From: a virus
Lineage: Duplodnaviria > Caudoviricetes
DNA: 58,652 nucleotides
Direction: 5' to 3' (one strand)
IMG/VR virus record: IMGVR_UViG_3300032291_002473
Location: 1-58,652 of that record
Position numbers and translations under genes: made by a program. Below, in pieces: positions 3,797 to 40,546 of this stretch (position 1 is its first letter; each line of letters opens with the position of its first letter). A model generated the notes under the pieces. The model ran no database searches, was not told the origin of the DNA, and saw nothing but the letters and a program-made list of their open reading frames with translations.

Positions 3797-3797
3797 G

Positions 3798-4814: not shown

Positions 4815-4826
4815 TACTTTTATATT

Positions 4827-23200: not shown

Positions 23201-26193
23201 TGACTAATATGTATAATAACAGAAAAGAGTATTATACAGATATGGTTAATAAACAATTAGCCGGTGTAGAGAATAATGCATTACTAAATCAATTAGCTGA
23301 TTTAAATATCTTTGTAGATCTAGATGCATTACAGGATTACATGGATAATGATATTATTCCTAAAGAGTTTTTTGATGAGTCTTCTAAACAAGTAATACCA
23401 AAAGGTACTAAAAAGTATAATGAGATATTTAACATACTTGCATTAAACAAAAGATTAAAAACTGAAGATGTAGAAAAACCTACATTAGATGGTACACTGC
23501 AAGAAAAAGTGGACTCATTAGAAGCACAAGAAAATGCAGAACTTGAGGAACTTGAAAAAATAGAGACTATTAAAAAAATCAAACATGAAGTTGCAAAAGA
23601 TAAACCATTTACAATTAATGATGTTTTAGATGGTCTTGAAGAAGGTCAGTATGTTGATGCAAAATATGAAGGTAGTGAAGACATACTTACTATGTTCATG
23701 GCATGGGATGATTTAAGACTAAATGATTCTAAAGGTGATAAAGTTGATATAGCTCTTATTAAAGATAAGTTCTCTGAATATAAAATATATACTAAAAAAT
23801 TACAAGCAAATCCTGAACAAGTAGCAGCTATTAAAGAAAAATATGATGCTCTTAGAGATGAGGCTGCTAATAAACATGCTGATAAAAAAGCTAAAACAAA
23901 AGCTGATGTATATTCTAATTATACACCAGTAGATCAATTACCTAAAGACTTATATAAAGAGTTACAAGATACATTCTCACAAACTGAAACAGCTATAAAA
24001 GCTGATGAAGATGAAACAAGTGATGAAGAGTTAATGGACTTGTTTAAAGTATTTGTAAAAACTAATCCATTAGCTGAAGAAGTAATCAATGAATATAATG
24101 ATAAAAGTAAAGATGCAGTTGAGAAAGAAAAACTAGGTGAGATAGATGATTTTGATTTTATATTAAACAATAAAAAATTAAATACAGCTGCTTATTCAAT
24201 TGATGATATTAAAATATTTAGAGCACAATTTGAAGAATTAAGAGATGAAGCTGATAGTACAATTACAAAAACAGCTTATCAAGATGTTATTACTAAATTC
24301 AATAAGTTAATATCTACAAGAGATATACAAAACTTTACACCAGAGGTACAAGAAATAATTAAAACATTAAAGAATGAGTTATTTGCTAAACAAAGTGGTA
24401 TAAATAAACTTGGTGAAGAAGGTTATGCAGTTAAAGGACAAATATTAGCAAGAGTAAGTAATTTTATTGAAAAGTATAAAACTGAAAAATATAGATATAC
24501 AGGTGCAGATATAGTTAAAGCTGCTTATGATATGACAATAGGTAATGTAGGATTTAATGAAAAGGGTGTAAAGTACCTTATTAATAAGTTAAAAGCTGAA
24601 TTACACATTGATTCAGTTGAAAAAAACTATGGTTATACAGATGAAACTGAGGCATTACTTAAAAAACACTTAAAGAATTTATTAGTACAAGATTTAAATA
24701 AAGTATTATTTAAAAATAAAGAAGAGTTATTAGAAGATATTCAAGCATTTATAAGTGAAAATACATATGAAGCATCAAGAGATGGTGGTACTTATGTAGA
24801 TGATGAGTTAAGAAAATTCTTTACAAAAGGTGAAGCTCCAGTTTTTGATGAGAAAAAAATTACTAGAGAAGCATATGATAATTTATTTGGGCCAACAAGT
24901 TTCTTAAAACCTATCAAGCAAAGAATTGATGCTGGTGAATTATATACAGTTGCAACTAATCTTAAAGTATATGATGTAGATTCTAACGTAGCAGGTGAGA
25001 TGGATTTATTACTTATTGATAAGGAAGGTAAACTACACATCATAGATTTTAAAACAGGTAATGAAACTAAATGGGATGGATTTGTAACACAGACTAAATT
25101 CAGTAAAAATAAACTTGAAGCATATACGCTTCAACAATATACTTATGCAAGGTTGTTAAAAAAGATGACAGGTCTTGATGCTGATATTAATATATTCCCA
25201 ATAGAGACTACATTAGATCAAAACAGTAAAAAAGTATTAACTGCTGGTGCACCTACTAATACAAAACTTAATGGTCCAGGTAAGTGGTACTTCTCACTTG
25301 ATCCTAATTTTACAGATGCTAAAGCTAAGATTGATAAAGCAATACCTATTGAAGCACCAGTGATTAAAGTAGCAACATCTATTAATCCAGTGTATAAGAA
25401 ACAACTTGTAAACTTAGGTTATCCAATTGGTATTATCAATGACTTAACTAAAGAACAAGCAGCTGAACTTACTAGAGATAATGTACCATACAAGGAGTAT
25501 ATTAAACAAACTAGTGGAGCTAAAATGTCATTTGGTAAAGCGGCAACTACAACTGAGGTTGATACTGAAAATAAATCAGTTGTTGAACCAGTACTAGATA
25601 CTAAAGATATAGATAAAAGAAGAAATAAGGCATACGGTAGCATACAGTTTAATTACTCAACTGATGAAGGTTACTATGGTATATATACTGATGCACAAGG
25701 TAAAGAAGAACTTATTGAAAGTGGAAATGAAAAAGCAATTAAAGCAATACTTAAAGAAAAGTATGATGCTGAAGTAGCTGCATTACAACTTCAAACAGGA
25801 CCAGTTACTAAAGCATCTGAGCTTAATCTACAAAAAGAGGATACAGTAGTTGTTAAAGAAGTAATACCTGAATTTGCAGAAAAAGGTGATACATTAACTG
25901 TTTTGAAATCTGATGAAAATTCAGTATCTTTTACAAATAAGGGTAAAGAAAAAACATTAACTTTACAAGAGTTAAATAAACACACAACAACAATGGATAT
26001 TCTTAAAACAGAGCAAGCAGAATCAACACCAGAAATACTTGATGCTATTGATAAACAGACTATTAATGAGACAGTTGATGCCTTTAATACCTTTATGAAT
26101 GACAAAGATGCAATTGATGCTGCAATAAAAGAAGCAGATGCAAAATCAATGTCTGAAATAGAAGATGACTTACTTAATAATCTTGACTGTTAA
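20251..26193 (+). CDS. Large virion cargo protein with hydrophobic segments and a PD-(D/E)XK nuclease domain
   Basis: 1980 aa. Hydrophobic stretches (IGMMAITAATGGAALPALF; FASGFFMGMFA). GTYVD...AGEMDLL...IIDFKTG...YTLQQYTY nuclease motifs at ~24780-25150. Confidence 0.7.
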   Translation: MLTDDNKEFNSLDPLGPQFGKANQQEISSEALKPFEGAPVKPVKNYFPVIPQSGALTRGDYAVKDIITGQAPNQPPSRSKQKVSAADFGRAAQQHFDMQLRTNQNKNNISKVAAYNAGPSGNSFYKRYAAYGQEKFDKIGFSPTRDNEALYNSHTTAWNDFSRMMTNSFVPLFSRGFVSGPKSLINALGGDFSGDTEDAKIYEEAAAIGQSSKGGFAGFFNNTAMNFAYTAGIITEAVAEEIGMMAITAATGGAALPALFATTANAGKNILRGIKGLDKVGDGFNAVNKTLKSLNNIDETRKLFNTIKAGANSKVVKFLNPFENMTEAFGTIAKNENNLEGLARTASAINKTAGGLFRDVRNANMALSEARLEAGMTENAVYDKIYTEYYKKNGVPPDNDTQFLMLQKSKEAGMSTLILNTALIFGSNKIVLPNILGPKGGPAGFLRSKVDDVMNLKDGKVVFEQFGKKAKEGVKQVGKGEFKYVEDSLKNTAKQILKQPGKTLLKSSAGYFKGNLMEGVQENLQEVIAGANEKYYSDALSNRVLGTHINERGKSSIMMDEFGKQFTSQGFETFASGFFMGMFAKPFNAALPTLFNGYNRVFNKDEYLKYKEIRKSYGEGLTNRLNTMYSDPKDFFNSKFFNYGVQNELATTIETADSKLKKDAMDEAFGNQVMTALETNTVNFFTEHLSSMKDMTPDEFEEAFRFEKGTGAKYQGRIDGIIETAKNMEKSYKYANDRFPNPINLSPLKKGTEEYNEATIFSNAWEHGKKNYVLLNQSFNNTMTRMSEIMGTIKDNPSLKNMAQADIDLIFEPNKIGNEVAMLKTEIEGLNLSQDPASKQQAVEKQNKLDALSNFLDVHTKHNVYNNRSDYAENLFEAYKKKTGETELSDDTKQYILDTAFGEKNDENTLKANSELEDAYKKYLKAVNGVDNSYVFDTDIDESFNKLLDHYKLDAESKKLVTYINLLHNPKSFVEHVEKTKQWMTNMYNNRKEYYTDMVNKQLAGVENNALLNQLADLNIFVDLDALQDYMDNDIIPKEFFDESSKQVIPKGTKKYNEIFNILALNKRLKTEDVEKPTLDGTLQEKVDSLEAQENAELEELEKIETIKKIKHEVAKDKPFTINDVLDGLEEGQYVDAKYEGSEDILTMFMAWDDLRLNDSKGDKVDIALIKDKFSEYKIYTKKLQANPEQVAAIKEKYDALRDEAANKHADKKAKTKADVYSNYTPVDQLPKDLYKELQDTFSQTETAIKADEDETSDEELMDLFKVFVKTNPLAEEVINEYNDKSKDAVEKEKLGEIDDFDFILNNKKLNTAAYSIDDIKIFRAQFEELRDEADSTITKTAYQDVITKFNKLISTRDIQNFTPEVQEIIKTLKNELFAKQSGINKLGEEGYAVKGQILARVSNFIEKYKTEKYRYTGADIVKAAYDMTIGNVGFNEKGVKYLINKLKAELHIDSVEKNYGYTDETEALLKKHLKNLLVQDLNKVLFKNKEELLEDIQAFISENTYEASRDGGTYVDDELRKFFTKGEAPVFDEKKITREAYDNLFGPTSFLKPIKQRIDAGELYTVATNLKVYDVDSNVAGEMDLLLIDKEGKLHIIDFKTGNETKWDGFVTQTKFSKNKLEAYTLQQYTYARLLKKMTGLDADINIFPIETTLDQNSKKVLTAGAPTNTKLNGPGKWYFSLDPNFTDAKAKIDKAIPIEAPVIKVATSINPVYKKQLVNLGYPIGIINDLTKEQAAELTRDNVPYKEYIKQTSGAKMSFGKAATTTEVDTENKSVVEPVLDTKDIDKRRNKAYGSIQFNYSTDEGYYGIYTDAQGKEELIESGNEKAIKAILKEKYDAEVAALQLQTGPVTKASELNLQKEDTVVVKEVIPEFAEKGDTLTVLKSDENSVSFTNKGKEKTLTLQELNKHTTTMDILKTEQAESTPEILDAIDKQTINETVDAFNTFMNDKDAIDAAIKEADAKSMSEIEDDLLNNLDC

Positions 26194-26210
26194 TAATAAA
26201 TAATAATACT

Positions 26211-29200
26211 ATGAACATTACTTGTGCACTATCTAGTGGCCAAATAAAAGGCTTATTCCAATACGTTTATAAAACAATGACTGAATCATTAGCTGGAGAC
26301 GCTGTCTTCAATGCTGATGAAGTTATGAAAAAGCTATTTGATAAAATAGAGAAAACAAAAGATGCAGATACAGCTGCTAAGTTTTTACAGATAGTGCCTC
26401 AAATGATTGGTACAGCATCTTATCAAACAGGTTTACTAGATCTTGAATTTGATCCAAAGTCAAACCCAAGAAAGCTTGCACAAAAGTTTATGAATTCTGA
26501 AACAGGTTTATTAGATGTATTACAATATTTTAAACCTAAAGATGTTATCAAGGAATTAAAAAATGAGGTAAGTATTAAAAACAATAGTGTTAATAGTCCT
26601 GAGTATTCAGATACTGAGACATTTCCCGCATCTCCAAGATTTAAACCATCAAGTGCCTTTACAACAACAATGCAACAGTTTATTTCTAAGAAACCAACTG
26701 GACAGTTAATGGTTGAAGAAATAGATCCTAACAGAGTAAGAATATATAATACACTTGAAAAACTTAAAGTTGTTTTTAATAGAAAAGATAATAGTGTGCT
26801 TGGTACAACATATCAAGGTAGAGTATTAAAACTTAAAGGTGTAAGATTAGATAGTGTTGCAGCTAGTTTAGATAAAACTACAGCTGATTTATTATTTAAA
26901 GGAAATACATTTGGAAAAAAAGGTGGTGAAAACTATCTTAAAGATGCTATTATATTAATGGTAACTGATGAATACGGTACTCCAATAAACTTTAATGAAG
27001 AAGGTGATATTGCATCTAAAGAAGAAGGTGGTAAACCTGTGTATCAATTTTTAAGAAATGTTACAGTAGATAAGGAAACAGGTGACTATACTATAAAAGA
27101 TATTTATGGTAAAGAAGAAAGAATACAGTCAGTAGAAGACATGCTTGGTAATTATGCATTTAGAGCATATAAAATAACATCACTTGATGAATTTAAAGAA
27201 TACTTAAAAGAACAAGGTGAGAACTATGATGATTTGTATAATCTCTTTAAAGAAAGACAACAAAAAGAATTTAAAGCTCTTTTAGACATACACAAAGAAA
27301 TACTAAAAGAAAAGGCAAAGCTGTTTGATATAATGGATATCAGTACTGGTGTACCTGATTATTTTACAGGTGGAGATATGCCATTAAATGATTTCTTGAA
27401 GTTAACAGATAACTTAAATGCTGATTACAGCTTTGAAACATTAACAGCTGGAAGAGATGGAATAGGTTCTGGGCAAACTGTAATTGTTATCAATGGTCAT
27501 GAAGTACCTGTTGATAGAAAAAATATGTCTGCAGATTTAATTGAGAAAATTGCAGAAGTATTAACTAATCCAAATATTCCTGATAATAGAAAATATATAT
27601 ATTATGATTATTTTTCTCATAATAATATAAATAAAAAAGATAAAAAATTATTTGTTGTTTATGACCCAGTTGATGGTTTAAAAGTTAGTTATAAAGAAGA
27701 TGCTAAAAATCCTGAAAAAAGTATATTAGATTTAACTAATAAAGAAATAGCAAAAAAAATCATCATAGACTCATTAAGTTTTGAAAGAGGGACGGTTAGT
27801 AAACCTTATTCTGCTAACATGAAGATCAATTCACAATTGCTAGAATCTGCTATACCCTTTTTTGATTATGATATTACAACAGGTAAATTTTTTGAAAGCA
27901 ATTATAGAGACTTTTTATTTAAAATTAACCCAACAATTAAATTTGTTGCTGGTGAAGATCCAGGTATATACAATTCTTACTTTGCATTCAGAGTTAATGA
28001 TAAACTAAGTAAAGAGTTAAAGAAAGCTGAAGAAAAAGTTCAAGAGAAAAAGTATACTACAGATTCTCAGATAAGACAAAATAAAGATGCTTTAGTACTT
28101 AAACTTGCAGAGAATCAAAATATATCTGGTACTGTAACAGATGGTTTAACTGCATCAACTTTTATAATTCAAGTTGATGGTATTACAGTTGAAGGTAGGT
28201 TTGAAGAGGGTTTGTCAATTACATCAGTACCAAAAAATAAAATTGTAACTTTTTCTGTAGGTGATAAAATAGAAGATGGTAAATTAATAACAGATGTTAT
28301 TTCTATTCTTGCAGGTAATAAAAAAATTGGTCAAGTAAGTGAAACTGATTATGCTAAAGAAGAGCCGAGAACTTATCAAGATGCTAAAATAGCTGATGAA
28401 AAAGTAATTAATCCGGTTGGCGTACCACAACCTTCAGATAAAAAAAGTAAGGCAAGTGGAATAAGTAAACTATGGGATAGAACAAGTAAATTACCAAGTG
28501 ATATTACTAGAGAAGAAGTAGATGCTGCTCAAGAGTGGTGGGAGAATTCTCCTTTATCTAAGTTTATTGAGCTTGAACACATGGCTAATATTGTTAACTC
28601 TGATGTTTATGCAAGATTTATTATTGCAGGTAAAAGATTAGAAGATACTAAAATACAATTAGATACTGCTACTGGTGGTTCTGCTGTAGATTTATACCAT
28701 GAAGCTTGGCATGCATTCTCTCAATTGTACTTGACTAAAGAACAAAAGACTAAGTTATATGATGAGACAAGAAAAAGATTAAATAATAATGATCTTACTA
28801 CACTTGAGGTTGAGGAAATAATAGCTGAAGATTTTAGAACTTATGCTAAAAATCCTAAACCAACAGGAGATGCACCAGTAAGAAATACTATATTCAGAAG
28901 AATATGGAACTTTATTAAAAAGCTATTTGGACAAAGAACTACTAAAGATGAGTTATTTGAAAAATTATTCTTTGCAGGTAAGAATCCTAAGCTTTTAAAC
29001 AAGTATACTCCACTTGTTGATAATGCAATGTTTGATATGTTGAATAGAGATAGAGGTATCTTAAATGTTGAGACAAAAGAACTTGCATTAAATTTTCAAG
29101 ACTCAATGGTTGTAGCAAGTCAAATTGATTCTGCTTTATCAGAATTAATTGATGAGATATATACAGATAGAGTACAGAGAGAAAAAGAAGGTGATGTTGA

Positions 29201-32200
29201 TAAAAACAATGTACCTATTAAAGCTACTAGAAATGGTACTATATCTTTATTAACAAATGATAAGCATAAAGCTGTTGCTTATGAAACTATATATGGAAGA
29301 TTTGAAGATAATCTTGCATATTTCCAAGATCAACTTGATACTGCAGATGAAGATGACTATAATAAAGTTACCCTTCTTACAGATAAAGTAAGAATTTTAA
29401 AAGCTGCATTAGAAAACTGGGGTGACTCAAACAGTGGAGTAGTTAAATTTCATATTGATAATAGTACATTTGATTTAATCAAGCAAAAATATATTGAGAT
29501 AGAAGCTGAGGATGAATTATCTGAAGATGATGATAATAGTGCACCAGAAAAAGCAGAGGAGTCAGAAAAATTTGCTGATAAAAAAGTAGGTGATAAATCA
29601 TTATTGCAATTAGCTGAGAAAGAAACTCTTTATATTATTAAAAGTTTATTTAAAGTAGTTGATGGTAAACAAGTAACAGGTAAACTTGGTTTTCCTGAGC
29701 TTGCTGATTTTAGTAAAACATGGAATATTATTACTAAAGTTATTGGTGGTGAAAAAGATCCGGTTAAAATGTATGAAAAACTTAATGAGGGTATGCAAAG
29801 TTTTCCTGAGTTAAGACAATTGATTGAGAATAAAATACCAGATCCAAGAGAAGTACATAACATTGAGGAATTCAATATTAAAGCTGCATTTTGGCAAGAC
29901 TTTAAAAAGACTAAACTTAAATACCTTCAATTAACAGTAGATGATCAAGATGGTAAGGGATATTCATCTGAGGTTACTGAAGCATCAATTGAGTTTACAA
30001 ATATTATTAACAAGTTTAATAGTGAATTTAAAGCATCTCCAAAAACTACATATATAAATAAAACTGCTGATAATAAATCTATACTTAATCTAGATAGAGT
30101 TGTTGCTGATTTTGATGGTAAAACATTTGACAGTAAAAAATCAATTGAGTTTGCAAGATCAATAGGTATAAACTTACAAGATCTTTCTGCATTAAAGAAA
30201 CAACTTGATAGTCATAAAAACTATTATAGTATGAATCATTTATTTGATGTAGTAAAAGCTATTCATAAAATAAGTAAAGACCCGAATGCAAGTTCAGAGC
30301 ATAAAAAGTTTATTCAAAAGTTTTTATCAAATCCAGTAGGTGCTTTATATGGTCAAATACCAGAAGGTATACATAAAAAAACTACTAGTGAGAAAAATAT
30401 AATTCAAAGATTAGCAAAACTACAAAGTGCTTATGGTACTAACTATTCTAGTTTTAGTGTATTAAATCCAGAGAAGAATCTTGTTAATGAGTTTATTGAA
30501 GATAATACTGTAAGTATGATTGTTGATGCTCTTAATAATGTTACAGAAGGTAAAGATTTATGGACAGGCGATGCTTATCAATATATGAGTTATCTTAATC
30601 CAGAAATAAATGGATTTACATTACAGTCTCAGATACTAAAAAACATATTTAAATTTGAAGGTAACACATTAGGTAAAAGAATCAGTGATAACAAACTTGA
30701 TTTAGTAATGGTTGCGGGTACCCAAATTGTAGATGAAAAAGGTGCTAACACAACTTCCCTTGATGTACAAAGTAAATACATACAAGAATTAAATACAATG
30801 CTTAAAGGTGGTATTATAGAATTCATGAGACATGCTTCTAAGTCTTCTTCATTTGGTATGAGATTATCAAATAATATTGCTGGTGGTATGGACAAGACAG
30901 AAAAAACTAACTTGTATGTAGACATTGATATGTTTGGTCCAAATGGTATTGCAGACAGATATGCTGTTGATGAAATATTTACAGGATACATACAGGCTGA
31001 GTTAATCAGAATACAAAAATTCAAAGGCAATAAAGAATTATTTAAGCAGTATAATGGTTATAACAGAAATGTTGGGACTAAAGAAAATCCTATTTATGCA
31101 GGTGAACAATTTACTGCATTTGATAATATATTAAAAGACTTCACTACTACAATAAATGGTGAAGAAAAAACTATGGATCTTAAACAATATCTAATTGATA
31201 ATGTAAAAGATGGTGACCTTAAAAACTATTTAAAGTCTAATCCAGAGATTAAAAAAGTTATTACTGAACAAGTAACAGAATACTTTAATAGTCAAACAGA
31301 TAAAAACTATGATAAGTTTTCTGAAGCTCCATTCTATGATCCAGCATTGATGAATAAGCTTAACGTGTTTACAACACTTGAAGAGGAAGAGAAACATAAG
31401 TTGCTTGTTAAAGCTTACACAATGAATGCCTGGATACACAACTTTGAAACAGCAAGTTTAGTATATGGTGATATAGCACAATACAATCATGCTAAACAAG
31501 AGTTGCATAAAAGAAATACAGGTTCTACTTCAGGAGGTAGAGGATTCATGGATGATGTATACACTCAAAACTTTTTACAAAGTGATCTTATTAAGAAAAC
31601 TTCTTATGGTCATAAGTTAGCTAATAAAGTAGGATATGGTAAGGGTTATAATAGTTTTAACTATACTAACACTTATAATACTGCAATACTTCAAGATGTA
31701 AGTAGAGATTCTGTATATGTTAAACATATTGAAAAAGCTTTAAGAGATGATTATACTAAAAGAGGTGTATCAAAAGCAGAAATAGAAAAAAGAATTGCTA
31801 AAGAAATTGATACGTATAAAAAAATGGAAGAAGGTGATGGTCAAGGTTTTATTACTATTGATGCATACCGTAATTTAAGATTAGCTGAAAGCAATTGGTC
31901 AGCTGAACAAGAAAACTTATTCCAAGATATTATTAATGATAAGCCAATTAAAGCAGAAGACATAGTAAGATTCTTTCCTGTATATAAATTACAACACTTT
32001 GGTCATTTAGCTAATACACAATTACCAGTTAATGCAATGCATAAGTTTGCATTGATGCCATTAATTCCATCAGTGATTAAAGGATCTGACTTAGAATCTT
32101 TACATCATCAAATGATGAAATCTAATATACAGTATGCTACATTCCAAACTGGTTCTAAAGTAGGAAGCATCACATCTGAATTAGATGAAAATGGAAAAGC

Positions 32201-35200
32201 TGTAGCAGATCAAATATATGATGATAAAGGTGTTGAAAAAATATTAAAATCTGATATTAAGTTTACGCCTAATACTATATACCTTGCTAACTTAAAGAAT
32301 GTTACAGCAGTACCAACTAAGTATAAAGGTAAAACTGTATTCTCAACTCAGTTAAGAAAACTTATACTTGAAGGTTTATACCAAGATGGAGAACTAGTAA
32401 ATAAAGATTATGCACCATATGTTAAAGCATATGAAACTGCTATTAAGGATTACACTAATTTACTTAAAACAGAATTACTTGAAGAGATTGGGTATGAAAA
32501 AGTAGATGGTAAATATGTAAGTGGAGACCTTACTAAATTCATGGATGTAGTTCAAAGAGAGCTAGAGAGAAAGGATTTACCAGAACACTTAATTAAGTAT
32601 ATTCAAGTAGGTAAGGATAATAAGATCACAAAAGATTTGTCTTTACACTTATTAGCTGATGATATTGAAAAAATATTAGTATCACTTGTTGAAAAAAGAA
32701 TTGTAAAACAAAAAGTAAAAGGTGAAGCATTAGTACAAGTAGCAAGTTCTATGTCTAATGGATTATGGGATTCAGGTTTTAAATTTGATAAAGCAGAAAC
32801 TAAAGACATTGAAAAATACTTAGGTAGTAATAACTTGCCTTTTTACTATCCTGGTGAAGATGGTAAAACAACTGCAATGAAAGTTGCTATTGCATTACAA
32901 GGTGATTTTAAAAATCTCTTAAAGCTTAACCATAATGATAAACAACCTATTGGTACAAGAGAGAGATTAAATGAGATGATCAAGAATGATGAGTGGTTGA
33001 GTAAAGGTAATAACCGTAAAGCAATCACTATGACAGCTGTAAGGATTCCAGTACAAGGATTAAACTCTATGGAGTTTATGGAAGTGTATGAGTTCTTAGA
33101 TCCATCTGCAGGTAATATCATTATTCCTCCATCAGAAATTGTTGCTAAGTCAGGTGCCGATTTTGACGTTGATAAGCTTACTACATTCATGCCTAATATA
33201 GATGCAATGGGTCACTATATAGAAACAAGCATGGATGCTAAAAAATTAGAGAGTCAAATAAATGCTGCTAAGAAAGAAGGTGATAAAAGTGAAATGAAAA
33301 GATTAATTAAAATGCAAAAAGCTGCATTAGAAAATAGATTAATTGATTCAATTAGAGGTATCCTTGAGTTACCAGATAACTATTCTACATTAGTGAGACC
33401 AAATGACACTTACTTATTAAAAGATATAGCTGTTGATCTTGTTAATTCATCTCCTGAATATAAAGAGTTTAAAAAGATTAGTCCAACAAATGTATTTGAA
33501 GTAGGTTATAACTTACACAAACATGAGGCTAATATGATTGGTAAAGATGTATTAGGTATTATTGCTCTTGAGAATGCATTACATCCATTATTTACATCAT
33601 TAGGTGCTGCTCTTCCAAAAACATATAAGCATCAAACATGGGATGATGAGAATAACAGATATGTTGAAGTACCAGAGATAGACTATGAAATGAGATTATT
33701 ACTTAATCATAATAAAACAGATGATGGTAAAATATCTTTAGCAAAGATTAACAGTGTAGACAACCAAGATAAGATTGCCGATTTAATATCTCACTTGATG
33801 AATGGATCTGTGGATGTTGAGAAAGATGCATGGATATTCTTTATTCAAGCTAATACAGAAATAGTACCTGTATTGCTTTCATTATTAAAAGCAGGTGTAC
33901 CTAAAAAAGAAGCTATCTACTTTGTGTCTCAACCTTTAGTAAAAGAGTATGCAAGACAACAAAGATTGATAAGTAGTGCATTTGCTAATGTAACTGAAAA
34001 CGGTGTACTAGCAAATGAAAATGAAAAATATAAAGCATTGCAAAATACATTAGCTAAAACATCATTAAATGAAGCTTTTGTAGAAACTACTTATCCAAGC
34101 TTATTAAAAGATGCAAATAAGTTAAAAATGTTAGATGCTGTTAAAGCTACTAAAGAAAATGTAAAAGTTAAATTTAAGGATAATAGTTTTAAAGTTTTTG
34201 CACCAAAAGAATTACTAAAAGCAATTGATAATAAAACTATTAATAAGGATAACATATCTGATATATTTTATGAAAAACCAAAATATAAATTAGATGAAGA
34301 GGGTAACCCTGTATATAATGATTATGGTCAAAAAGTTCAAATACGTTTATATAAAAAGGTTAGCCCATCTCATTTACTTTCAAATGATAACTGGTATTAT
34401 GTTACACAATTATTAACTAAAGATGTTAATAAATTTAGTGAAGCTGAATTAAAAGCAAATATTGATAATGAGGATTTTAACAGTGACTCTGCAATAAAAG
34501 CTTTCTTGCATTTTATTGAATTTGAGAAAGAGATAAAAGGCTTATCTAATTTAAAAAGACAAGCTAATCCTGATACTAAGACTTCAAAAACAATACAAGA
34601 AGTAACACAAAAAACTTTATCACTTGAAGAAGCTGCAGATTCATCTAAGATAGAACCTGAATTAGCAAGAAAGCTTCAAGAGGAATCTATATTAGGTACA
34701 TTCTTTGATAAAATGATTATTACAGATGCTGTATCACCTTTGTTTAATCTAACAAATAATAAAATTGTATCTGATCACATGGTCAAAACTATTACAAGAA
34801 ATGGTGGTAAGATAACTACTAAATTTGGTGAAGGTAAAGATGGTGTTGAAGCATACATAACTGCATACAAAAATGCAATAGTAAATTACATCTATCAGAA
34901 TAAATTAAATAATATTATTTCAACTGAGGAATCTTTCCCAGGAATACCAGAATCATTTACAGATATAGACTCAAAAGAGTATATTGAAAAATTTATGGTA
35001 ATGTTGAGTGAGCATTCTCACTTAAAAGAATTGTATCCTATACTTGAACAAATTACTGATATACCAGTAAGAACTAAGAAAAAAACTGCTTTTGGTACAG
35101 AACCTGCGTATACAACAACATTAACATTAAATAATAAATCTGCTGTTAAAGGTGCATTAGCTGAAGCTTATCACCAAAACTTGCTTGATCTTGCTGATGA

Positions 35201-37253
35201 TAATGTTATTAAAGTAAAAGACCCAGAGCAAAACAAAGAGATATCAGATATGTTTAAAATGCTACCTCTTATGTCTATTTTACAAAATGGAGTAGGTAGT
35301 ACTAAATATGGTTTAAGTTATGTTTTACCTGATACTACATTCTTTGAAATAATAGAACCTGCATCAAGAGAATTCTTAGCTTTAGATACTGAGATAAAAG
35401 ATAAAACATTAGATATAATAGATAATTTATTATTTGAAAATGGTGTTGGTGAAAATAATTATATTCTATCAAGAGCTTCACGTAAAGCTTCTGAGTTAAC
35501 AGATATAGATGTTGATGTAGAAGTTGAAGATGAAGAATATGTACCTAAAGGTGTAGTATCTGCAGGTGTTCAAGGTATGACTTTTGGTGCTAAACCTACT
35601 CAACCTTCTACTAGTGTTGATAGTAATGATATATATTCTCAATTAGAAAATAAAAATGTAGTTATTTCTAACATTAAAACTAAAGATGGTAAATATGATA
35701 GGGATGCTAATATAAAAGAAGCAAAAGCTAACAATAGAGTTTATACTATGGAAGTGGTTAGTGATGTAAATAGCTTTAGTAATCCTTGGGCTCATTTTAT
35801 TAGAACAGGTACTATAAAAACTAATACTACTAAAGAAGCAGTTATAAATTATATTGATTGGTTAACTACTGATAAATTTAAAGATGTTAAACCAAAAAGA
35901 AAAGCATTTATTCTAGATGTTTTAAAATCAGGTAAATTAAAAGGAAGACAACTGCAATATTATGCAGAACTTGGAGAACCGTCTCATGCTATAGCTTTAG
36001 ATTATTTAATTAATAAATATGATTGGGGGACACCATCTACTCAATCATCTACTAATGTTGAAGCTAAACAAGAAAGAATAAAAAAAGTAATTCCAAATAC
36101 TATAGTTGATAAATTAGAGGGTTATACATTTAATTTACAAGAACTAAATAATGTTAAAAAGATATTTGAAAATACAAATCCATTTAATACAGATCCATTA
36201 GATTCAGAAACTATAAAAGATGGAAGAGTTTTTGAAGATCCAGGTCTTAGAGAGTATGGAATGAGTGATCAACAATATAGTTGGGCAAAAAATAATGAAC
36301 CTATATTGAGTAAACTTAATGAACTATTATACACTGATGAGTACTCAGCAGTAAATTTTGAGGACTTAGTCTCTATGTTAATTGATGATAATACAAAGTT
36401 AGTAGATACTGCACAGACTAGTTTATTTGATGATGAATCTATTCAACAACAAGCTCCACTAAGTGAAGTTAAAGAAGATGTAGAAGATACACAATCTAAT
36501 AATACAATAACTTATAAACCTATAGGTAAAGAAACTCAAACATATACTGTTGAAAATGGTAGTATCTTTAATAAAAATGGTGATGAAGTATTTAAAGAAG
36601 CTAGTGTAGATAGAAATAAAATCCTTGCTAACCTTGCAGTAAAACAAGGTAGAGCAGTTGTAGTAGAATACAGAACATATACAAATAAAGAAGGTGTTGA
36701 AGTACCTGCTAAATACGTTGTTAATAATAAAGATGTAATTATATCTGGTATAACAGGTAAAGTGATGCAGCGGGATGAAAGTAACCGTGATAGAAAAGCT
36801 ATTATTGCATTGGCAAAAATTGCATTTGCTGAAGTTGGTCCTGAAGAACCACAGATAAATTCAGACATGGAAGCATTTAATGCTGAAGTATCTAAAAATC
36901 AAGGTAAATTACCTAAAGAGTTTACAGTTGGTCAAAGAACTTGGGTATTAAATAATATGAAGCTTTATGATTTAGTAGATAAAGCTTCAGGTAAAATGTT
37001 TCTTAAAAATATGAATATGTTTACTGGTAACATATCACAAGAAATCACATTAGAAAAACCGGTTAATAGAAAACAATTATATAACTTTGCTAAACAATTA
37101 GCAAGTGGTGTAAAAGAATATAAATTAGATCAGTTACTTGCAGTTAAAGGAATAAGTGTTGATGATATAATTAATGATATTAGTAATAATAAAATCACAA
37201 CTCAGAGTCAATTAAATGATAAAATTAATGAAATACTTAAAGCAATATGTTAA
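26211..37253 (+). CDS. Virion-packaged single-chain DNA-dependent RNA polymerase (crAss-like two-barrel RNAP) with zincin and accessory domains
   Basis: 3680 aa. DGQG (31836-31847), RIP (~33042) and catalytic-type GADFDVDKL (DFDVD 33159-33173), like the DFDID motif of crAss-like RNAPs. HEAWH at 28698-28712. Confidence 0.88.
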   Translation: MNITCALSSGQIKGLFQYVYKTMTESLAGDAVFNADEVMKKLFDKIEKTKDADTAAKFLQIVPQMIGTASYQTGLLDLEFDPKSNPRKLAQKFMNSETGLLDVLQYFKPKDVIKELKNEVSIKNNSVNSPEYSDTETFPASPRFKPSSAFTTTMQQFISKKPTGQLMVEEIDPNRVRIYNTLEKLKVVFNRKDNSVLGTTYQGRVLKLKGVRLDSVAASLDKTTADLLFKGNTFGKKGGENYLKDAIILMVTDEYGTPINFNEEGDIASKEEGGKPVYQFLRNVTVDKETGDYTIKDIYGKEERIQSVEDMLGNYAFRAYKITSLDEFKEYLKEQGENYDDLYNLFKERQQKEFKALLDIHKEILKEKAKLFDIMDISTGVPDYFTGGDMPLNDFLKLTDNLNADYSFETLTAGRDGIGSGQTVIVINGHEVPVDRKNMSADLIEKIAEVLTNPNIPDNRKYIYYDYFSHNNINKKDKKLFVVYDPVDGLKVSYKEDAKNPEKSILDLTNKEIAKKIIIDSLSFERGTVSKPYSANMKINSQLLESAIPFFDYDITTGKFFESNYRDFLFKINPTIKFVAGEDPGIYNSYFAFRVNDKLSKELKKAEEKVQEKKYTTDSQIRQNKDALVLKLAENQNISGTVTDGLTASTFIIQVDGITVEGRFEEGLSITSVPKNKIVTFSVGDKIEDGKLITDVISILAGNKKIGQVSETDYAKEEPRTYQDAKIADEKVINPVGVPQPSDKKSKASGISKLWDRTSKLPSDITREEVDAAQEWWENSPLSKFIELEHMANIVNSDVYARFIIAGKRLEDTKIQLDTATGGSAVDLYHEAWHAFSQLYLTKEQKTKLYDETRKRLNNNDLTTLEVEEIIAEDFRTYAKNPKPTGDAPVRNTIFRRIWNFIKKLFGQRTTKDELFEKLFFAGKNPKLLNKYTPLVDNAMFDMLNRDRGILNVETKELALNFQDSMVVASQIDSALSELIDEIYTDRVQREKEGDVDKNNVPIKATRNGTISLLTNDKHKAVAYETIYGRFEDNLAYFQDQLDTADEDDYNKVTLLTDKVRILKAALENWGDSNSGVVKFHIDNSTFDLIKQKYIEIEAEDELSEDDDNSAPEKAEESEKFADKKVGDKSLLQLAEKETLYIIKSLFKVVDGKQVTGKLGFPELADFSKTWNIITKVIGGEKDPVKMYEKLNEGMQSFPELRQLIENKIPDPREVHNIEEFNIKAAFWQDFKKTKLKYLQLTVDDQDGKGYSSEVTEASIEFTNIINKFNSEFKASPKTTYINKTADNKSILNLDRVVADFDGKTFDSKKSIEFARSIGINLQDLSALKKQLDSHKNYYSMNHLFDVVKAIHKISKDPNASSEHKKFIQKFLSNPVGALYGQIPEGIHKKTTSEKNIIQRLAKLQSAYGTNYSSFSVLNPEKNLVNEFIEDNTVSMIVDALNNVTEGKDLWTGDAYQYMSYLNPEINGFTLQSQILKNIFKFEGNTLGKRISDNKLDLVMVAGTQIVDEKGANTTSLDVQSKYIQELNTMLKGGIIEFMRHASKSSSFGMRLSNNIAGGMDKTEKTNLYVDIDMFGPNGIADRYAVDEIFTGYIQAELIRIQKFKGNKELFKQYNGYNRNVGTKENPIYAGEQFTAFDNILKDFTTTINGEEKTMDLKQYLIDNVKDGDLKNYLKSNPEIKKVITEQVTEYFNSQTDKNYDKFSEAPFYDPALMNKLNVFTTLEEEEKHKLLVKAYTMNAWIHNFETASLVYGDIAQYNHAKQELHKRNTGSTSGGRGFMDDVYTQNFLQSDLIKKTSYGHKLANKVGYGKGYNSFNYTNTYNTAILQDVSRDSVYVKHIEKALRDDYTKRGVSKAEIEKRIAKEIDTYKKMEEGDGQGFITIDAYRNLRLAESNWSAEQENLFQDIINDKPIKAEDIVRFFPVYKLQHFGHLANTQLPVNAMHKFALMPLIPSVIKGSDLESLHHQMMKSNIQYATFQTGSKVGSITSELDENGKAVADQIYDDKGVEKILKSDIKFTPNTIYLANLKNVTAVPTKYKGKTVFSTQLRKLILEGLYQDGELVNKDYAPYVKAYETAIKDYTNLLKTELLEEIGYEKVDGKYVSGDLTKFMDVVQRELERKDLPEHLIKYIQVGKDNKITKDLSLHLLADDIEKILVSLVEKRIVKQKVKGEALVQVASSMSNGLWDSGFKFDKAETKDIEKYLGSNNLPFYYPGEDGKTTAMKVAIALQGDFKNLLKLNHNDKQPIGTRERLNEMIKNDEWLSKGNNRKAITMTAVRIPVQGLNSMEFMEVYEFLDPSAGNIIIPPSEIVAKSGADFDVDKLTTFMPNIDAMGHYIETSMDAKKLESQINAAKKEGDKSEMKRLIKMQKAALENRLIDSIRGILELPDNYSTLVRPNDTYLLKDIAVDLVNSSPEYKEFKKISPTNVFEVGYNLHKHEANMIGKDVLGIIALENALHPLFTSLGAALPKTYKHQTWDDENNRYVEVPEIDYEMRLLLNHNKTDDGKISLAKINSVDNQDKIADLISHLMNGSVDVEKDAWIFFIQANTEIVPVLLSLLKAGVPKKEAIYFVSQPLVKEYARQQRLISSAFANVTENGVLANENEKYKALQNTLAKTSLNEAFVETTYPSLLKDANKLKMLDAVKATKENVKVKFKDNSFKVFAPKELLKAIDNKTINKDNISDIFYEKPKYKLDEEGNPVYNDYGQKVQIRLYKKVSPSHLLSNDNWYYVTQLLTKDVNKFSEAELKANIDNEDFNSDSAIKAFLHFIEFEKEIKGLSNLKRQANPDTKTSKTIQEVTQKTLSLEEAADSSKIEPELARKLQEESILGTFFDKMIITDAVSPLFNLTNNKIVSDHMVKTITRNGGKITTKFGEGKDGVEAYITAYKNAIVNYIYQNKLNNIISTEESFPGIPESFTDIDSKEYIEKFMVMLSEHSHLKELYPILEQITDIPVRTKKKTAFGTEPAYTTTLTLNNKSAVKGALAEAYHQNLLDLADDNVIKVKDPEQNKEISDMFKMLPLMSILQNGVGSTKYGLSYVLPDTTFFEIIEPASREFLALDTEIKDKTLDIIDNLLFENGVGENNYILSRASRKASELTDIDVDVEVEDEEYVPKGVVSAGVQGMTFGAKPTQPSTSVDSNDIYSQLENKNVVISNIKTKDGKYDRDANIKEAKANNRVYTMEVVSDVNSFSNPWAHFIRTGTIKTNTTKEAVINYIDWLTTDKFKDVKPKRKAFILDVLKSGKLKGRQLQYYAELGEPSHAIALDYLINKYDWGTPSTQSSTNVEAKQERIKKVIPNTIVDKLEGYTFNLQELNNVKKIFENTNPFNTDPLDSETIKDGRVFEDPGLREYGMSDQQYSWAKNNEPILSKLNELLYTDEYSAVNFEDLVSMLIDDNTKLVDTAQTSLFDDESIQQQAPLSEVKEDVEDTQSNNTITYKPIGKETQTYTVENGSIFNKNGDEVFKEASVDRNKILANLAVKQGRAVVVEYRTYTNKEGVEVPAKYVVNNKDVIISGITGKVMQRDESNRDRKAIIALAKIAFAEVGPEEPQINSDMEAFNAEVSKNQGKLPKEFTVGQRTWVLNNMKLYDLVDKASGKMFLKNMNMFTGNISQEITLEKPVNRKQLYNFAKQLASGVKEYKLDQLLAVKGISVDDIINDISNNKITTQSQLNDKINEILKAIC
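35596..36061 (+). repeat. Imperfect 25-nt direct repeat pair flanking an in-frame domain cassette
   Basis: CTACTCAACCTTCTACTAGTGTTGA (35596-35620) vs CTACTCAATCATCTACTAATGTTGA (36037-36061): 22/25 identical, 441 nt apart, encoding TQPSTSV and TQSSTNV. Confidence 0.75.
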
Positions 37254-40200
37254 CGTGCCCAATTAAAACTAGTCAAGAGTATCAGGATATTCTTAAAGAA
37301 GCTAACGGTAATAAAGAAAGAGCCCTTGAACTATGGACAGAACGCGGGTATAATTATGATGCAGATTTAAATGAGTATAAAGAAACTGAACCTGCAACAG
37401 GTGTGGATCCAGAAGATACTAGGGATGATAAATTGTCATCTCTAGTAGATAGAATGCGTCTATATGTAAGTAAAGAGATAAAAATGTTTGAGGGTAGAAA
37501 AGTTAAAGATCAGGAGGTTTTTAAAAAGAAAAAGGAAAAACTACTTGAGACTCTAAAAGCATTAGATGGTGTTGACTCAATTAATATGTTTGTTAAAGAT
37601 GCCTATGAACAAGCTCAACATGCTAAAAAAAGATTTGATTTAATCTTGAGTAATATTGGTACTGAAGATGGTAAAGATATATTAAATGAATTAGCATCAA
37701 TTAATGAGTTTGCTAATGGATACTCTATATTAGATGAGATAAGTAAACAAGATGTATATGATTTTTTCTCAGCTGGAAAAGATGAAAGAGATTCTGACAC
37801 AAATATGACTGCACAGGACATGCTTTCAGATGCTGTTACAATAAGAGATAATATTAAAAAGAAATATGTACAAGTTGGTATACCATTAATGGCGGATTGG
37901 TTATTACAGTACCAAGCAGAAGGCATTGAAGAAAAAGTGTTGCCACATCTTGAAACATTAAAACAAAGACTAGATGAAGTTAAGGCTTCTAATACTTTAT
38001 CTGAAAAGAAAAAAGAAAAAGAGATTAGTAAACTAGAAGATGCAATCAATACATGGCAAAATTTTTCATTAGATAAAAAATCTCTTGTAGAATTATTAAC
38101 TAAAGCAAGTCAAGATGAAGGTGTGATAGATTTTTTAATTAGTCCATTGATATCATCCAATGATCAGTCACTTGGATTATTTGCAAGAGCTGTTAAAACA
38201 GAATTAGAAATTGCTAGGCTTACAGATGTTGACGTTAAAAGATTAGCAAGTGAGGAGTTTGAAAAATATAAAGACACTCAATCTGCTAGTCAAAATAATC
38301 CAGCAAAATTTAATGAAGGTTTATATGAGTTTTTAGATTTTACTAAAGAAAATAGTGATGGTACTGTTGAAGTAACAAAGAGAGCAGCCTTTGTACAGAA
38401 ACATGATATAAACTACTTTAAAAGTGAGTTAAGCAAAATGAAAAAATCACTTGCTGGTTTATCAGATACTGAACAAAAAAGAATTAAAAATCAATGGTAT
38501 AAGGATAATACTAATGCAAAAAGTCAAGAAGAGATTGATAAGATTATTGCATCTAAATTAAAATTAAAGAATGCAAAACTATTGACTCAAGATGAATATG
38601 ATGGTTGGTATGACAGTGTCCATTCAGTTGGTAAAGATGGTAAAGTATATTATAAAGGTGAGTTAAGTGAACCATCAATAAAGTATATAAATAAAAACTG
38701 GACTAGCTTATATGACTCAACGGGTAAACCAAAAAATCCAAAAGGTGAGTATCATAAGTATTTAGTTGATATGTATCTTGAAGCACAAGAAAGATTACCA
38801 GATGTACAGAAGAAAGGATATATATTACCATCAATACTTAAGACTGATCTTGAAAGATTTCAGCAAAATGGTGGAAAAGATTTAGCAAAATATAAGTTTA
38901 AAGAAGCAACATCTATTACAACTGATGATGTGGATTATGCATTAGGTGATTTATCTGAACAAGGCACTAAGTTTTTACCTGTAGATTATACACGTAATAT
39001 GGATGCTAAGGATGTAAGTTTAGATTTAGTAAGATCTGTATTAATATTTAACTCAATGTCTAATAAATATGAAGCATTGAATAAGATAGGTAATGAGATT
39101 AATATGTTTAAAACTATTATTGGTGAAAGAGAAGTAACAGCAACCAATTCAAAAGGTAAACCAATCTTTGATGCTTTTGCTAAAAAAATTGGTTTTACTG
39201 AGTTTTTAAGACAGAATGGTGAAAGTTATTCTAAAAGACATGTTGATGCATTTATAGATATGGTTGTATATCAAGAGATGCAAAGAGCTGAAGAAATACT
39301 TGGATTTTCAGGAGGTAAATTAACTAACACTATGATGGGTTTTTCTGCTATTACTTCTATTGCAGCAGATGTATTAAAAGGTGTAGCAAATAATTTACAA
39401 GGTAATATTCAATTAATTATTGAGGCAAACTCAGGTGAATTTTTTTCTGTTAAAAATCTTCATACTGGTAAAAAAGAATTTGCTAAAATTGTACCGGATT
39501 TATTCAGTGACTTTGGAAAATCTTCACCTAAATCATGGGTAGGACAATTAATTGAGGAATTTGATCCAATGCAAGGTGAGTATAAAGATCAGTATGGTAG
39601 AAATGTATCTCAGTCAGCAGTAATTAAATTAATGAGAACTGATACATTATTCTTTAATCAACATTGGGGTGAGTATGAAATACAAGTATCTTCAATGTTT
39701 GCATTAATGGCAGCTACAAAAACAATAGATAAAGCTACTGGAGAAGAAATAACTGTACTTGAAGCATATAAAAAATATGGTTCAAAAGATATTTATACAA
39801 AAACTAATTTTACATCTAAACAAAGATTTGACTTACAGAATAAATTACATGCATTAAGTAAAAGATTACATGGTGTATATAATGATTTTGATAAAGGTAC
39901 TGTGCAAAGATTTTCATTAGGTAGACTTGCATTAATGTATAAAAAACATTTAGTACCAGGATACAAAAGAAGGTTTAAAAAAGCATCAATGGATCAAGAG
40001 TTAGGTAGTCCTGTTGAGGGTTTTTATAGAACCTTTAATTCTACTATGATAAGAGATATAAAACAGATGAAGTTTAATGTAACTAAAAACTGGGCAACCT
40101 ATTCTGATTTTGAAAAAGCACAAATTACAAGAACATTAACTGAATTAACACTTATTATTGCTTTAGGTGGATTAGCAGGAATGTTAGCTTATGCATTTAG

Positions 40201-40546
40201 TGGAGATGATGATGATGATGAAGCTGTAAGAAAAAGTTATGCATATAACTTTGCAATGTATGAGTTAATCAGAATGCGTAGTGAAACTGCAAGTTATATT
40301 TGGATTGGAGATACAATGCGTATTATAAAGTCACCATTAGTAATTACAAGTACACTTGAAAGAACATTACGTCTTGCTAATCAATTATTACCAACTAATA
40401 TTACTGAAACATACAAAAGAGATACTGGTGTTTGGGAAAAAGGAGATAATAAAGCTTGGGCATATTTCTTAAAACTTATGGGTTTTTCAGGAAATAATAT
40501 TGATCCAGGTGAAGCAGTTAAAGGATTTGAAAGTTTAATAAGATAA
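37247..40546 (+). CDS. Large virion cargo/ejection protein with a C-terminal hydrophobic helix
   Basis: 1099 aa, helical, with a hydrophobic LTLIIALGGLAGMLAYAF segment. Overlaps the RNAP stop and is the last gene of the block. Confidence 0.6.
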   Translation: MLTCPIKTSQEYQDILKEANGNKERALELWTERGYNYDADLNEYKETEPATGVDPEDTRDDKLSSLVDRMRLYVSKEIKMFEGRKVKDQEVFKKKKEKLLETLKALDGVDSINMFVKDAYEQAQHAKKRFDLILSNIGTEDGKDILNELASINEFANGYSILDEISKQDVYDFFSAGKDERDSDTNMTAQDMLSDAVTIRDNIKKKYVQVGIPLMADWLLQYQAEGIEEKVLPHLETLKQRLDEVKASNTLSEKKKEKEISKLEDAINTWQNFSLDKKSLVELLTKASQDEGVIDFLISPLISSNDQSLGLFARAVKTELEIARLTDVDVKRLASEEFEKYKDTQSASQNNPAKFNEGLYEFLDFTKENSDGTVEVTKRAAFVQKHDINYFKSELSKMKKSLAGLSDTEQKRIKNQWYKDNTNAKSQEEIDKIIASKLKLKNAKLLTQDEYDGWYDSVHSVGKDGKVYYKGELSEPSIKYINKNWTSLYDSTGKPKNPKGEYHKYLVDMYLEAQERLPDVQKKGYILPSILKTDLERFQQNGGKDLAKYKFKEATSITTDDVDYALGDLSEQGTKFLPVDYTRNMDAKDVSLDLVRSVLIFNSMSNKYEALNKIGNEINMFKTIIGEREVTATNSKGKPIFDAFAKKIGFTEFLRQNGESYSKRHVDAFIDMVVYQEMQRAEEILGFSGGKLTNTMMGFSAITSIAADVLKGVANNLQGNIQLIIEANSGEFFSVKNLHTGKKEFAKIVPDLFSDFGKSSPKSWVGQLIEEFDPMQGEYKDQYGRNVSQSAVIKLMRTDTLFFNQHWGEYEIQVSSMFALMAATKTIDKATGEEITVLEAYKKYGSKDIYTKTNFTSKQRFDLQNKLHALSKRLHGVYNDFDKGTVQRFSLGRLALMYKKHLVPGYKRRFKKASMDQELGSPVEGFYRTFNSTMIRDIKQMKFNVTKNWATYSDFEKAQITRTLTELTLIIALGGLAGMLAYAFSGDDDDDEAVRKSYAYNFAMYELIRMRSETASYIWIGDTMRIIKSPLVITSTLERTLRLANQLLPTNITETYKRDTGVWEKGDNKAWAYFLKLMGFSGNNIDPGEAVKGFESLIR

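Follow-up and report, generated by a model that had tools for sequence, protein, structure and literature searches.

The closest described counterparts of the proteins studied here are the ejection proteins of N4-like phages (Schitoviridae) and the capsid cargo of cultured members of Crassvirales, the most abundant phages of the human gut. The Schitoviridae ejection proteins, namely gp50/gp71 (the virion RNA polymerase, vRNAP), gp51/gp72 and gp52/gp73, are almost free of cysteine (Cys); homologues of the vRNAP contain 0.00075% Cys against 0.865% in the proteomes, and avoidance of periplasmic disulfides has been proposed as the reason (PMC11445570). For Crassvirales, two key studies report that gp47, gp49 and gp50 of crAss001 were detected in virions and placed in the capsid cargo zone, and that cargo proteins must pass constrictions of less than 50 Å partly unfolded (PMC10172136), while the phi14:2 homologues are virion components, the phi14:2 polymerase was crystallised in a self-inhibited state, and the three proteins of the block are fused in some phages (bioRxiv 10.1101/2020.03.07.982082). 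How such giant internal proteins are packaged, ordered, ejected and activated is an open question in both studies. Here we describe how Cys residues are arranged in the corresponding block of a 58.6-kb viral contig from IMG/VR (IMGVR_UViG_3300032291_002473), estimated to be about 50% complete, the whole of which we call the window. The block comprises three consecutive open reading frames (ORFs) on the + strand, which encode proteins A (1980 amino acids, aa), B (3680 aa) and C (1099 aa). The Cys pattern of these proteins is real, far beyond chance, and general to Crassvirales.

Across the 6759 residues of A, B and C, translation of the window ORFs gives four Cys, each at a protein end that faces a neighbouring protein of the block (Table 1). 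An earlier note on this DNA had placed four Cys at these termini, and the computed count bears it out to the residue. The note had also held that the two outer ends of the block lack Cys, which translation confirms: A starts MLTDDNKEFNSL... and C ends ...EAVKGFESLIR. A DUF4326-like insert that it mentions could not be substantiated, as Pfam gives no DUF4326 in B at E<=0.01 or at E<=10. With four Cys scattered at random, all four junction-facing ends would have one no more than 5 residues away with a probability of 7e-12, which rules out chance for the window pattern. Nor is the depletion of Cys from A, B and C compositional, since spurious antisense ORFs inside the same genes reach 2.5-4.8% Cys. 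At the B|C junction the two genes overlap by 7 nucleotides (nt), and ATATGTTAA contains the ATG start of C plus the TGT-TAA end of B; the A|B junction has a 17-nt spacer, so gene overlap is ruled out as the cause.

By sequence similarity, A, B and C are the Crassvirales virion RNA polymerase (RNAP) block, with equivalents in crAss001 gp47/gp50/gp49 and phi14:2 g067/g066/g065. Protein C matches gp49, annotated as 'RNA-polymerase subunit', and g065 in blastp (6e-57 and 4e-41), and B matches g066 and gp50 (6e-24 and 9e-14). The match of A to gp47 is weak (3.5e-9), and residues 67-987 of A align to residues 19-898 of a fused 4902-aa protein from a related locus (L061; E 6e-41). The DFDxD catalytic motif of B is invariant in both of our polymerase core alignments (A1 and A2) and is present in 79/80 loci of the first survey described below. 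By analogy with crAss001 and phi14:2, A, B and C of this phage would be present in the virion and ejected from it.

The same arrangement is found in the named phages. In phi14:2, g067 (1797 aa) has Cys at 1797 only, g066 (2180 aa) at 3 and 2179 only, and g065 (1421 aa) at 3 only. The crAss001 proteins carry Cys 2339 of 2341 residues (gp47), Cys 5, 1334 and 2404 of 2412 (gp50) and Cys 5 (gp49), a layout shared by cr128_1 and cr85_1, and those of DAC15 carry Cys 2220 (gp078, 2222 aa), Cys 5 and 2265 with three internal Cys (gp076, 2265 aa) and Cys 4 and 619 (gp077, 1369 aa). Where A and B are fused, as in cr1_1 (4551 aa) and cr118_1 (4946 aa), the N-terminal Cys is absent and the fusion protein has Cys 4548 or Cys 4943, with C carrying Cys 5 or Cys 3, respectively. 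Where B and C are fused, as in cr8_1 (4422 aa), the fusion protein has Cys 5 and no C-terminal Cys, and A has Cys 2337 of 2338. The earlier note had envisaged a chain in gene order. Protein order holds across these genomes and gene adjacency does not: in crAss001-type genomes gp47 lies on the opposite strand, downstream of gp49, the third gene of the block, and its C-terminal Cys is still present. Because gp47 keeps its Cys although non-adjacent and on the other strand, the pattern is independent of gene adjacency, and the order of the putative chain is, on this comparison, a property of the proteins.

We extended the comparison to 240 IMG/VR loci, which together with the eight named phages make up the sample; genomes of the zeta group with highly fragmented RNAP genes (described in Yutin 2021) lie outside it. 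ORFs were called by a simple rule (first ATG, longest non-overlapping ORFs) rather than with a gene finder. Survey 1 used the polymerase core alignment A1 and took the best 80 of 433 relatives, at 23-91% identity; survey 2 was ranked on the cr8_1 core (A2) and took the best 80 of 551 relatives, mainly from gut clades; and survey 3 used the conserved part of C (A5) and took the best 80 of 166 relatives, mainly crAss001-like, with seven loci that had too few large ORFs omitted. In survey 1, a Cys occurs in the last 10 residues of the RNAP in 74/74 complete C-termini (6/80 ORFs run off the 3' end), and our script found Cys at residue 3-6 of the next cargo ORF in 72/74. The two misses (L063 and L069) have Cys 3 and Cys 4; both ORFs are cut off and failed the density filter. 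At the A|B junction, 48 of 64 evaluable survey 1 loci have both Cys, 15 have neither, and one has the Cys of B only (L054, with a non-cargo gene upstream); the 15 that have neither are long forms of 3.7-4.9 thousand residues that follow a Cys-free protein of another kind. The chain proteins of this survey (474,381 residues) contain 248 terminal and 27 internal Cys (0.0057%) against 0.856% in other ORFs of the same loci, which is a depletion of internal Cys of about 150-fold. Survey 2 loci have the A Cys at the second-last residue and a fused B+C that begins M-x-C. Survey 3 shows both Cys at 73/73 evaluable B|C junctions, and an N-terminal Cys in 47/47 B proteins of at least 2000 aa.

Altogether, 412 junctions were examined in the 240 loci. 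Since some contigs recur in two scans, the totals count distinct junction peptides, of which there are 295: both Cys are present at 202, neither at 68, the upstream Cys only at 4 and the downstream Cys only at 21 (odds ratio 164, p 1e-42). The conservation in orthologues that the earlier note had expected of such a comparison is thus seen at 202/295 distinct junctions. The pattern can be put as a rule, in which a Cys at residue 3-6 of one cargo protein goes together with a Cys 0-9 (once 18) residues from the end of the protein before it. We attribute 24 of the 25 one-sided junctions to gene order, inserted genes or Cys-rich neighbours. Some have the crAss001-type order, with A on the other strand and its C-terminal Cys present in the four loci checked; in others the gene upstream of B is non-cargo (L054, L151), the neighbours are Cys-rich non-cargo proteins (L064, L071, L075), or the junction is interrupted by inserted genes. 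In ten loci (L110, L111, L112, L116, L120, L123, L125, L127, L132 and L142), an in-frame ATG precedes the M-S-C start conserved in close relatives by 14-32 codons, and automatic start calls, by taking this first ATG, would hide the N-terminal Cys.

Terminal Cys codons could conceivably arise from chance, from wrongly called ORF ends, or from nucleotide signals where genes meet, such as overlapping stop and start codons or coupling signals. The B|C overlap in the window, where the ATG lies within ATATGTTAA, and the many junction gaps of -7 to +20 nt would suit such an origin. However, both TGT and TGC are used and Cys positions vary, and the pair is kept where genes are non-adjacent or A is on the opposite strand, over spacers of 43-265 nt, and across inserted GIY-YIG endonuclease genes. 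The pair is also conserved down to 23% identity in the polymerase core, and chance has a probability of 7e-12 in the window alone. We give this explanation next to no credence. The free-standing GIY-YIG genes between chain genes lie at L053:11711-13050 and L054:10024-10641, with the pair kept on either side, and L053 has an extra 217-aa ORF of no known family.

Gene fusions and gene splits speak to the pairing itself. Fused genes lose both junction Cys, whether A+B (cr1_1, cr118_1, L061 and others) or B+C (cr8_1 and most of survey 2). The 4902-aa fused ORF of L061 has a single Cys, third from the end; the B+C proteins of L109 and L147, about 4500-4700 aa long, have no internal Cys; and in L140 the whole block is one 5642-aa ORF with zero Cys. 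New Cys pairs at new junctions, which the earlier note had predicted for split genes, are seen as well, in ten small proteins (169-655 aa) whose two ends bear exactly one Cys each and whose interior has none. The last 135-170 residues of window B are homologous to the end of separate small two-Cys proteins in L006, L022 and L030.

The boundaries between the genes also move. Measured from the N-terminus, DFDxD is about 1040-1470, 1615-1770 or 2140-2825 residues away in three classes of protein that all have an N-terminal Cys, and forms with a distance of at least 2989 residues are fused and lack it. Residues 823-909 of window B match residues 1891-1983 of the A protein of L080 (43% identity), and the greater length of window B (3680 aa) is explained by gene boundaries being located elsewhere. 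Residues 1566-1639 of A (window:24946-25167) show a weak PD-(D/E)XK nuclease match (E 3.2e-4, 21.2 bits against a Pfam cut-off of 22). This region is the part of A that aligns with crAss001 gp47, and in cr1_1 it aligns with a protein downstream of the polymerase; from its differing location, domains seem to have moved among the three block proteins. Sensitive local alignment of the split junction of L077 with the fused L078 found no clear similarity over the junction region, a hint that this junction may lie in a variable linker. As judged from these alignments, the RNAP block behaves in evolution as one polyprotein that is cut into varying numbers of genes at varying places.

The fusions bear on a second explanation, in which the closure is intramolecular, with the N-terminus of B bonded to its own C-terminus, the small pieces closed likewise, and A and C paired together or left free. 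Both ends of B and of the ten small pieces do carry a single Cys, and small domains often have their termini close to each other in space. Yet a swap of partners would be needed at every fusion (B with C after fusion of A+B, A with B after fusion of B+C), and A and C, with one Cys each, are unsuited to closure; we consider this reading highly improbable. Judged on the sequences compared, junction-wise pairing is the sole scheme in which partners would always come and go together. A single four-Cys metal site across the three proteins was rejected, as the number of Cys tracks the number of junctions.

Because the loci are related, raw junction counts overstate the evidence. We therefore turned to a FastTree tree of 156 polymerase cores, with extra-split cases outside the tree. 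On it, at least 9 changes of state are counted for the upstream C-terminal Cys and 10 for the downstream N-terminal Cys. For A|B, the upstream Cys distinguishes the members of six independent pairs when supported branches alone are used (9 with all branches), and the downstream Cys changed in the same way in 5.9 of the six on average and in the opposite way in 0 (sign test p 0.031).

The geometry of the ends is narrow. The N-terminal Cys lies at residues 3-6 in 192/192 proteins, at residue 3 in 99, 4 in 53, 5 in 34 and 6 in 6. Among 196 proteins with a C-terminal Cys, it is the last residue in 34, stands 1, 2 or 3 residues from the end in 88, 38 and 16, and lies farther in 20, so that 176/196 have it 0-3 residues from the end. 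Cys4 of C is invariant in its alignment (A4). Most of the 24 homologues of the N-terminal region of window B align from residue 1-3, and by this measure the conserved domain starts right behind the N-terminal Cys. As the overhangs are only a few residues, a Cys-Cys joint would be close to linear. Two recurrent starts were seen among these proteins: C-P-N-x-x-[SL]-P-E-W-K-x-L after the N-terminal Cys of many C proteins (for example L023, L025, L033, L077, L078 and L081), which in L077 follows the Cys of both B and C, and M-A-C-x-I-I-R-N. Three other candidate roles for the terminal Cys were rejected on this geometry. A bacterial lipoprotein would need a signal peptide of about 15-25 residues plus a lipobox, for which Cys at residue 3-6 in 192/192 leaves no room. 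Against a prenylation-like reading, no domain flanks the Cys, which are separated from the N-terminus by 2-5 residues and from the C-terminus by 0-9 (once 18). A split intein is at odds with the same overhangs of 0-9 (once 18) and 2-5 residues, and A, B and C contain no Pfam intein family.

The best reading of these patterns is probably that a head-to-tail disulfide between proteins rebuilds a split polyprotein. Pairwise gain and loss, the empty outer ends and the Cys-free full fusion argue for direct contact between junction Cys, and with one thiol per side, a disulfide is the simplest chemistry. In the virion, the two Cys of each junction would form a disulfide to give a nearly linear chain, A-S-S-B-S-S-C. 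In this chain A, with a C-terminal Cys only, would be the starter, C, with an N-terminal Cys only, the terminator, and B and the small two-Cys pieces the extenders. The pieces would be co-packaged in fixed proportion and would exit through the portal and tail channel successively, much like a fused polyprotein. Such passage would be possible because the joint would be hardly wider than a single chain and the overhangs are tiny, and the thread would hand each following piece to the channel. The reducing host cytoplasm would then separate the pieces, and the purge of other Cys may guard against wrong pairing in the crowded capsid. More speculatively, reduction may relate to activation of the self-inhibited polymerase. 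Sequence comparison leads us to infer a disulfide, the time at which it forms, an ordered ejection and release by reduction. The full proposal, in which terminal disulfides re-join the split polyprotein, the thread permits successive portal passage of several megadalton-scale cargoes, and reduction frees and activates the virion RNA polymerase, is a tentative one that we rate at somewhat below even chances.

Paired gain and loss would suit any direct Cys-Cys contact, and the junction Cys might instead be bridged by a shared metal ion (Zn, Cu(I) or Fe) and released by a change in metal or redox state. Such a bridge could be favoured by the acidic residues that often stand before the C-terminal Cys (..LDC, ..LEC, ..SDC) and by the C-P at many N-terminal Cys. 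However, each junction offers two thiolates only, with no conserved His or further Cys nearby, and a link of two ligands would be a weak one in a chain exposed to packaging pressure. A Zn-hook type of bridge would draw four ligands at conserved spacing from its partners, which here have one Cys per end. Cys numbers rise by two with each junction, from 0 in the full fusion to at least 6 with extra pieces, which also misfits a single four-ligand site. We regard a metal bridge as quite unlikely.

Co-occurrence alone is no proof of direct contact, and the terminal Cys might engage a third component rather than each other, for example an enzyme that modifies them, a protein of the capsid or portal, or a redox sensor by which the polymerase is activated after entry. 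What is reported of crassviruses lends this some appeal: the activation of the self-inhibited phi14:2 polymerase is unexplained (10.1101/2020.03.07.982082), and crAss001 structural proteins use disulfides (PMC10172136). Against this, a third component leaves unexplained why there is one Cys per split end, why the outer ends are empty and why the full fusion (L140) is Cys-free; cargo proteins encoded nearby contain no Cys, and those tail proteins that are rich in Cys are located beyond the cargo zone described for the capsid (PMC10172136). A third component is unlikely. By the sequence patterns, head-to-tail disulfides account better than either it or the metal bridge for the presence of two Cys per junction and of none at the outer ends.

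Several observations weigh against head-to-tail disulfides. Assembly takes place in a reducing cytoplasm and the gut habitat is anoxic, so that an occasion for disulfide formation is hard to place, and specific pairing among four chemically equal thiols would require docking of neighbouring domains. Profile searches for thioredoxin and Erv1/Alr found no match in the window record, which is about 50% complete, and the Erv1 profile was also silent in all control genomes, which leaves this negative without weight. Complex prediction of the last 170 aa of B with the first 350 aa of C, made with six-row alignments and with controls not folded, gave a score of 0.13 (mark 0.32), a result that counts in neither direction as to binding. 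Gut clades with fused B+C show a relaxed purge of Cys, with internal numbers of 0-22, mostly 3-22, and internal Cys also occur in crAss001 gp50 and DAC15 gp076. Independent events are few: A|B has 6-9 of them and B|C about 2. Ten starts were reassigned by homology, and the ORFs come from the simple rule instead of a gene finder. Finally, a 583-aa piece in L157 has Cys 3 and Cys 521 with the C-terminal Cys absent, and the next piece starts M-S-C; this is the sole irregular junction left without explanation. Within the relaxed set, the loci L089-L139 have a fused B+C of about 4100-4850 residues, yet their A is nearly Cys-free and the A|B pair is kept. The chain of L157 (L157:14200-21875) also encloses two further ORFs, one of 162 aa that is ferritin-like and one of 628 aa with a YkuD L,D-transpeptidase domain and Cys 39, 42, 363 and 368.

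Not every break in an RNAP ORF carries a Cys pair. Eight breaks lie inside conserved core motifs and have none (L171, L175, L185, L199, L224, L233, L238 and L244). All eight hold an intervening ORF of 181-255 aa within about 0.9-1.3 kb, and the three such ORFs scanned encode an HNH endonuclease (L185, break 4022-4939) and LAGLIDADG endonucleases (L199 and L171). In the one locus scanned with Rfam, Intron_gpI matches L185:4643-4882 at 45 bits (E 6e-10), just below the gathering score. We read these Cys-less breaks as probable intron breaks. One further split has no Cys: at L080:8130-8520, A (2044 aa) and B (2207 aa) stand 242 nt apart with the junction Cys absent. Upstream of B its frame stays open as far as the point where the A frame ends, and given this overlap L080 is best explained, as the pairing rule would predict, by a single frameshift within a fused A+B gene, which looks like either an assembly error or a programmed event; an Rfam scan of the gap found no match. 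In L158, L161 and L162 the long block ORFs appear only when TAG is read as sense, which agrees with reports that some crAss-like phages recode TAG. An extra break without Cys (3265 + 1187 aa) is present in L158, where its relatives have one 4483-aa ORF.

The genomic setting of the block follows that of crAss001. Matches to Pfam CrAss_Ring_2, CrAss_Ring_1 and crAss_MUZ span 3125-10028, with the rings just upstream of the muzzle gene, and the window order is tail rings, muzzle, cargo-like ORFs and then the RNAP block (Table 1). The order in crAss001, gp44 (muzzle), the cargo genes gp45 and gp46, and then gp47, matches it. Judged by their position after the muzzle gene, the four ORFs upstream of A are likely cargo proteins like gp45 and gp46, outside the chain. 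PHROGs gave no family for six of the cargo proteins, and the four upstream ORFs are also without a Pfam family; phmmer against PDB sequences found no match for A, B or C, and megablast of window 26000-38000 against a phage collection found none. The two Cys of the 849-aa upstream protein (window:14713-17262), at residues 114 and 124, are ten apart. Lone close Cys pairs also occur in crAss001 gp45 (390, 398) and phi14:2 g069 (369, 378), and blastp at 1e-3 detected no homology among the three proteins.

Table 1. Positions in the window of the RNAP block, its terminal Cys codons and the genes upstream
Feature	Position	Strand	Remarks
Muzzle protein, 1734 aa	4827..10031	+	18 Cys; Pfam crAss_MUZ 3.9e-31
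Four upstream ORFs, 823/712/849/978 aa	10031..20264	+	0/0/2/0 Cys; no terminal Cys
Protein A	20251..26193	+	Proposed first chain link; sole Cys is the last residue, 1980
Cys1980 codon of A, TGT	26188..26190	+	C-terminal residue
Protein B, virion RNA polymerase (by homology)	26211..37253	+	Cys confined to residues 5 and 3680 (last)
Cys5 codon of B, TGT	26223..26225	+	
DFDxD catalytic motif, B residues 2317-2321	33159..33173	+	Invariant columns D582, F583, D584 and D586 of alignment A1
C-terminal 170-aa module of B	36741..37250	+	Ends in invariant Cys (C170, alignment A3)
Cys3680 codon of B, TGT	37248..37250	+	C-terminal residue; overlaps the ATG of the C gene
Protein C	37247..40546	+	Proposed last chain link; sole Cys is residue 4
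Cys4 codon of C, TGC	37256..37258	+	

If head-to-tail disulfides do join the block, they would represent a new viral route for delivering a multi-protein machine as one removable covalent thread, and a natural counterpart to the way of N4-like phages, which is to do without Cys altogether. They could also account for the frequent splitting and fusion, and for the free drift of boundaries, in the transcription block. Mechanism aside, the rule aids annotation: it flagged the L080 frameshift and the ten mis-called starts, and it told introns from true gene ends. Full-text literature searches found no description of terminal Cys in these proteins, with subscription-only papers and supplements outside their reach, and the text of PMC10172136, 10.1101/2020.03.07.982082, Yutin 2021 and PMC11445570, as far as it was available and leaving aside the supplements, has no cysteine or disulfide term for the crassvirus block proteins. 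Disulfide coupling of virion proteins and chains that cross a conduit are each known; the topology and the evolutionary rule seen here are undescribed in the searchable literature.

The window block is of the same kind as the blocks of crAss001 and phi14:2; they are homologous, have DFDxD in common, and occupy the same place after the ring and muzzle genes. In purified crAss001 virions, other parts contain disulfides between proteins, which are described in tail ring and hub proteins, in a gp57 dimer and at the portal vertex (PMC10172136). As described there, those structural disulfides join folded proteins side by side, whereas the cargo pattern runs head to tail, falls on internal cargo that the structure does not resolve, and tracks gene boundaries. 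Split inteins are alike in having separately encoded halves and a Cys that starts the downstream half, and unlike in that no intein fragments occur at crassvirus junctions. Two-chain protein toxins have a single inter-chain disulfide, a narrow membrane channel to cross, and reductive release in the cytosol. The likeness to them is one of principle, as the chains equal one precursor (here, fused orthologues exist) and the proposed disulfide would lie across the break. The toxins, however, arise by a proteolytic nick and have their Cys in a loop, while the crassvirus proteins come from separate genes, carry Cys at their extreme termini and can number at least 4 pieces in series, with no homology between the two systems. 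The N4-type ejection proteins are alike in content, with a giant virion RNA polymerase, companion proteins and a Cys content similarly low to that of the crassvirus interiors (0.0057%). Unlike the N4-type proteins, which have no terminal Cys and an RNA polymerase in one polypeptide, the crassvirus block is split, and it carries one Cys at each split end.

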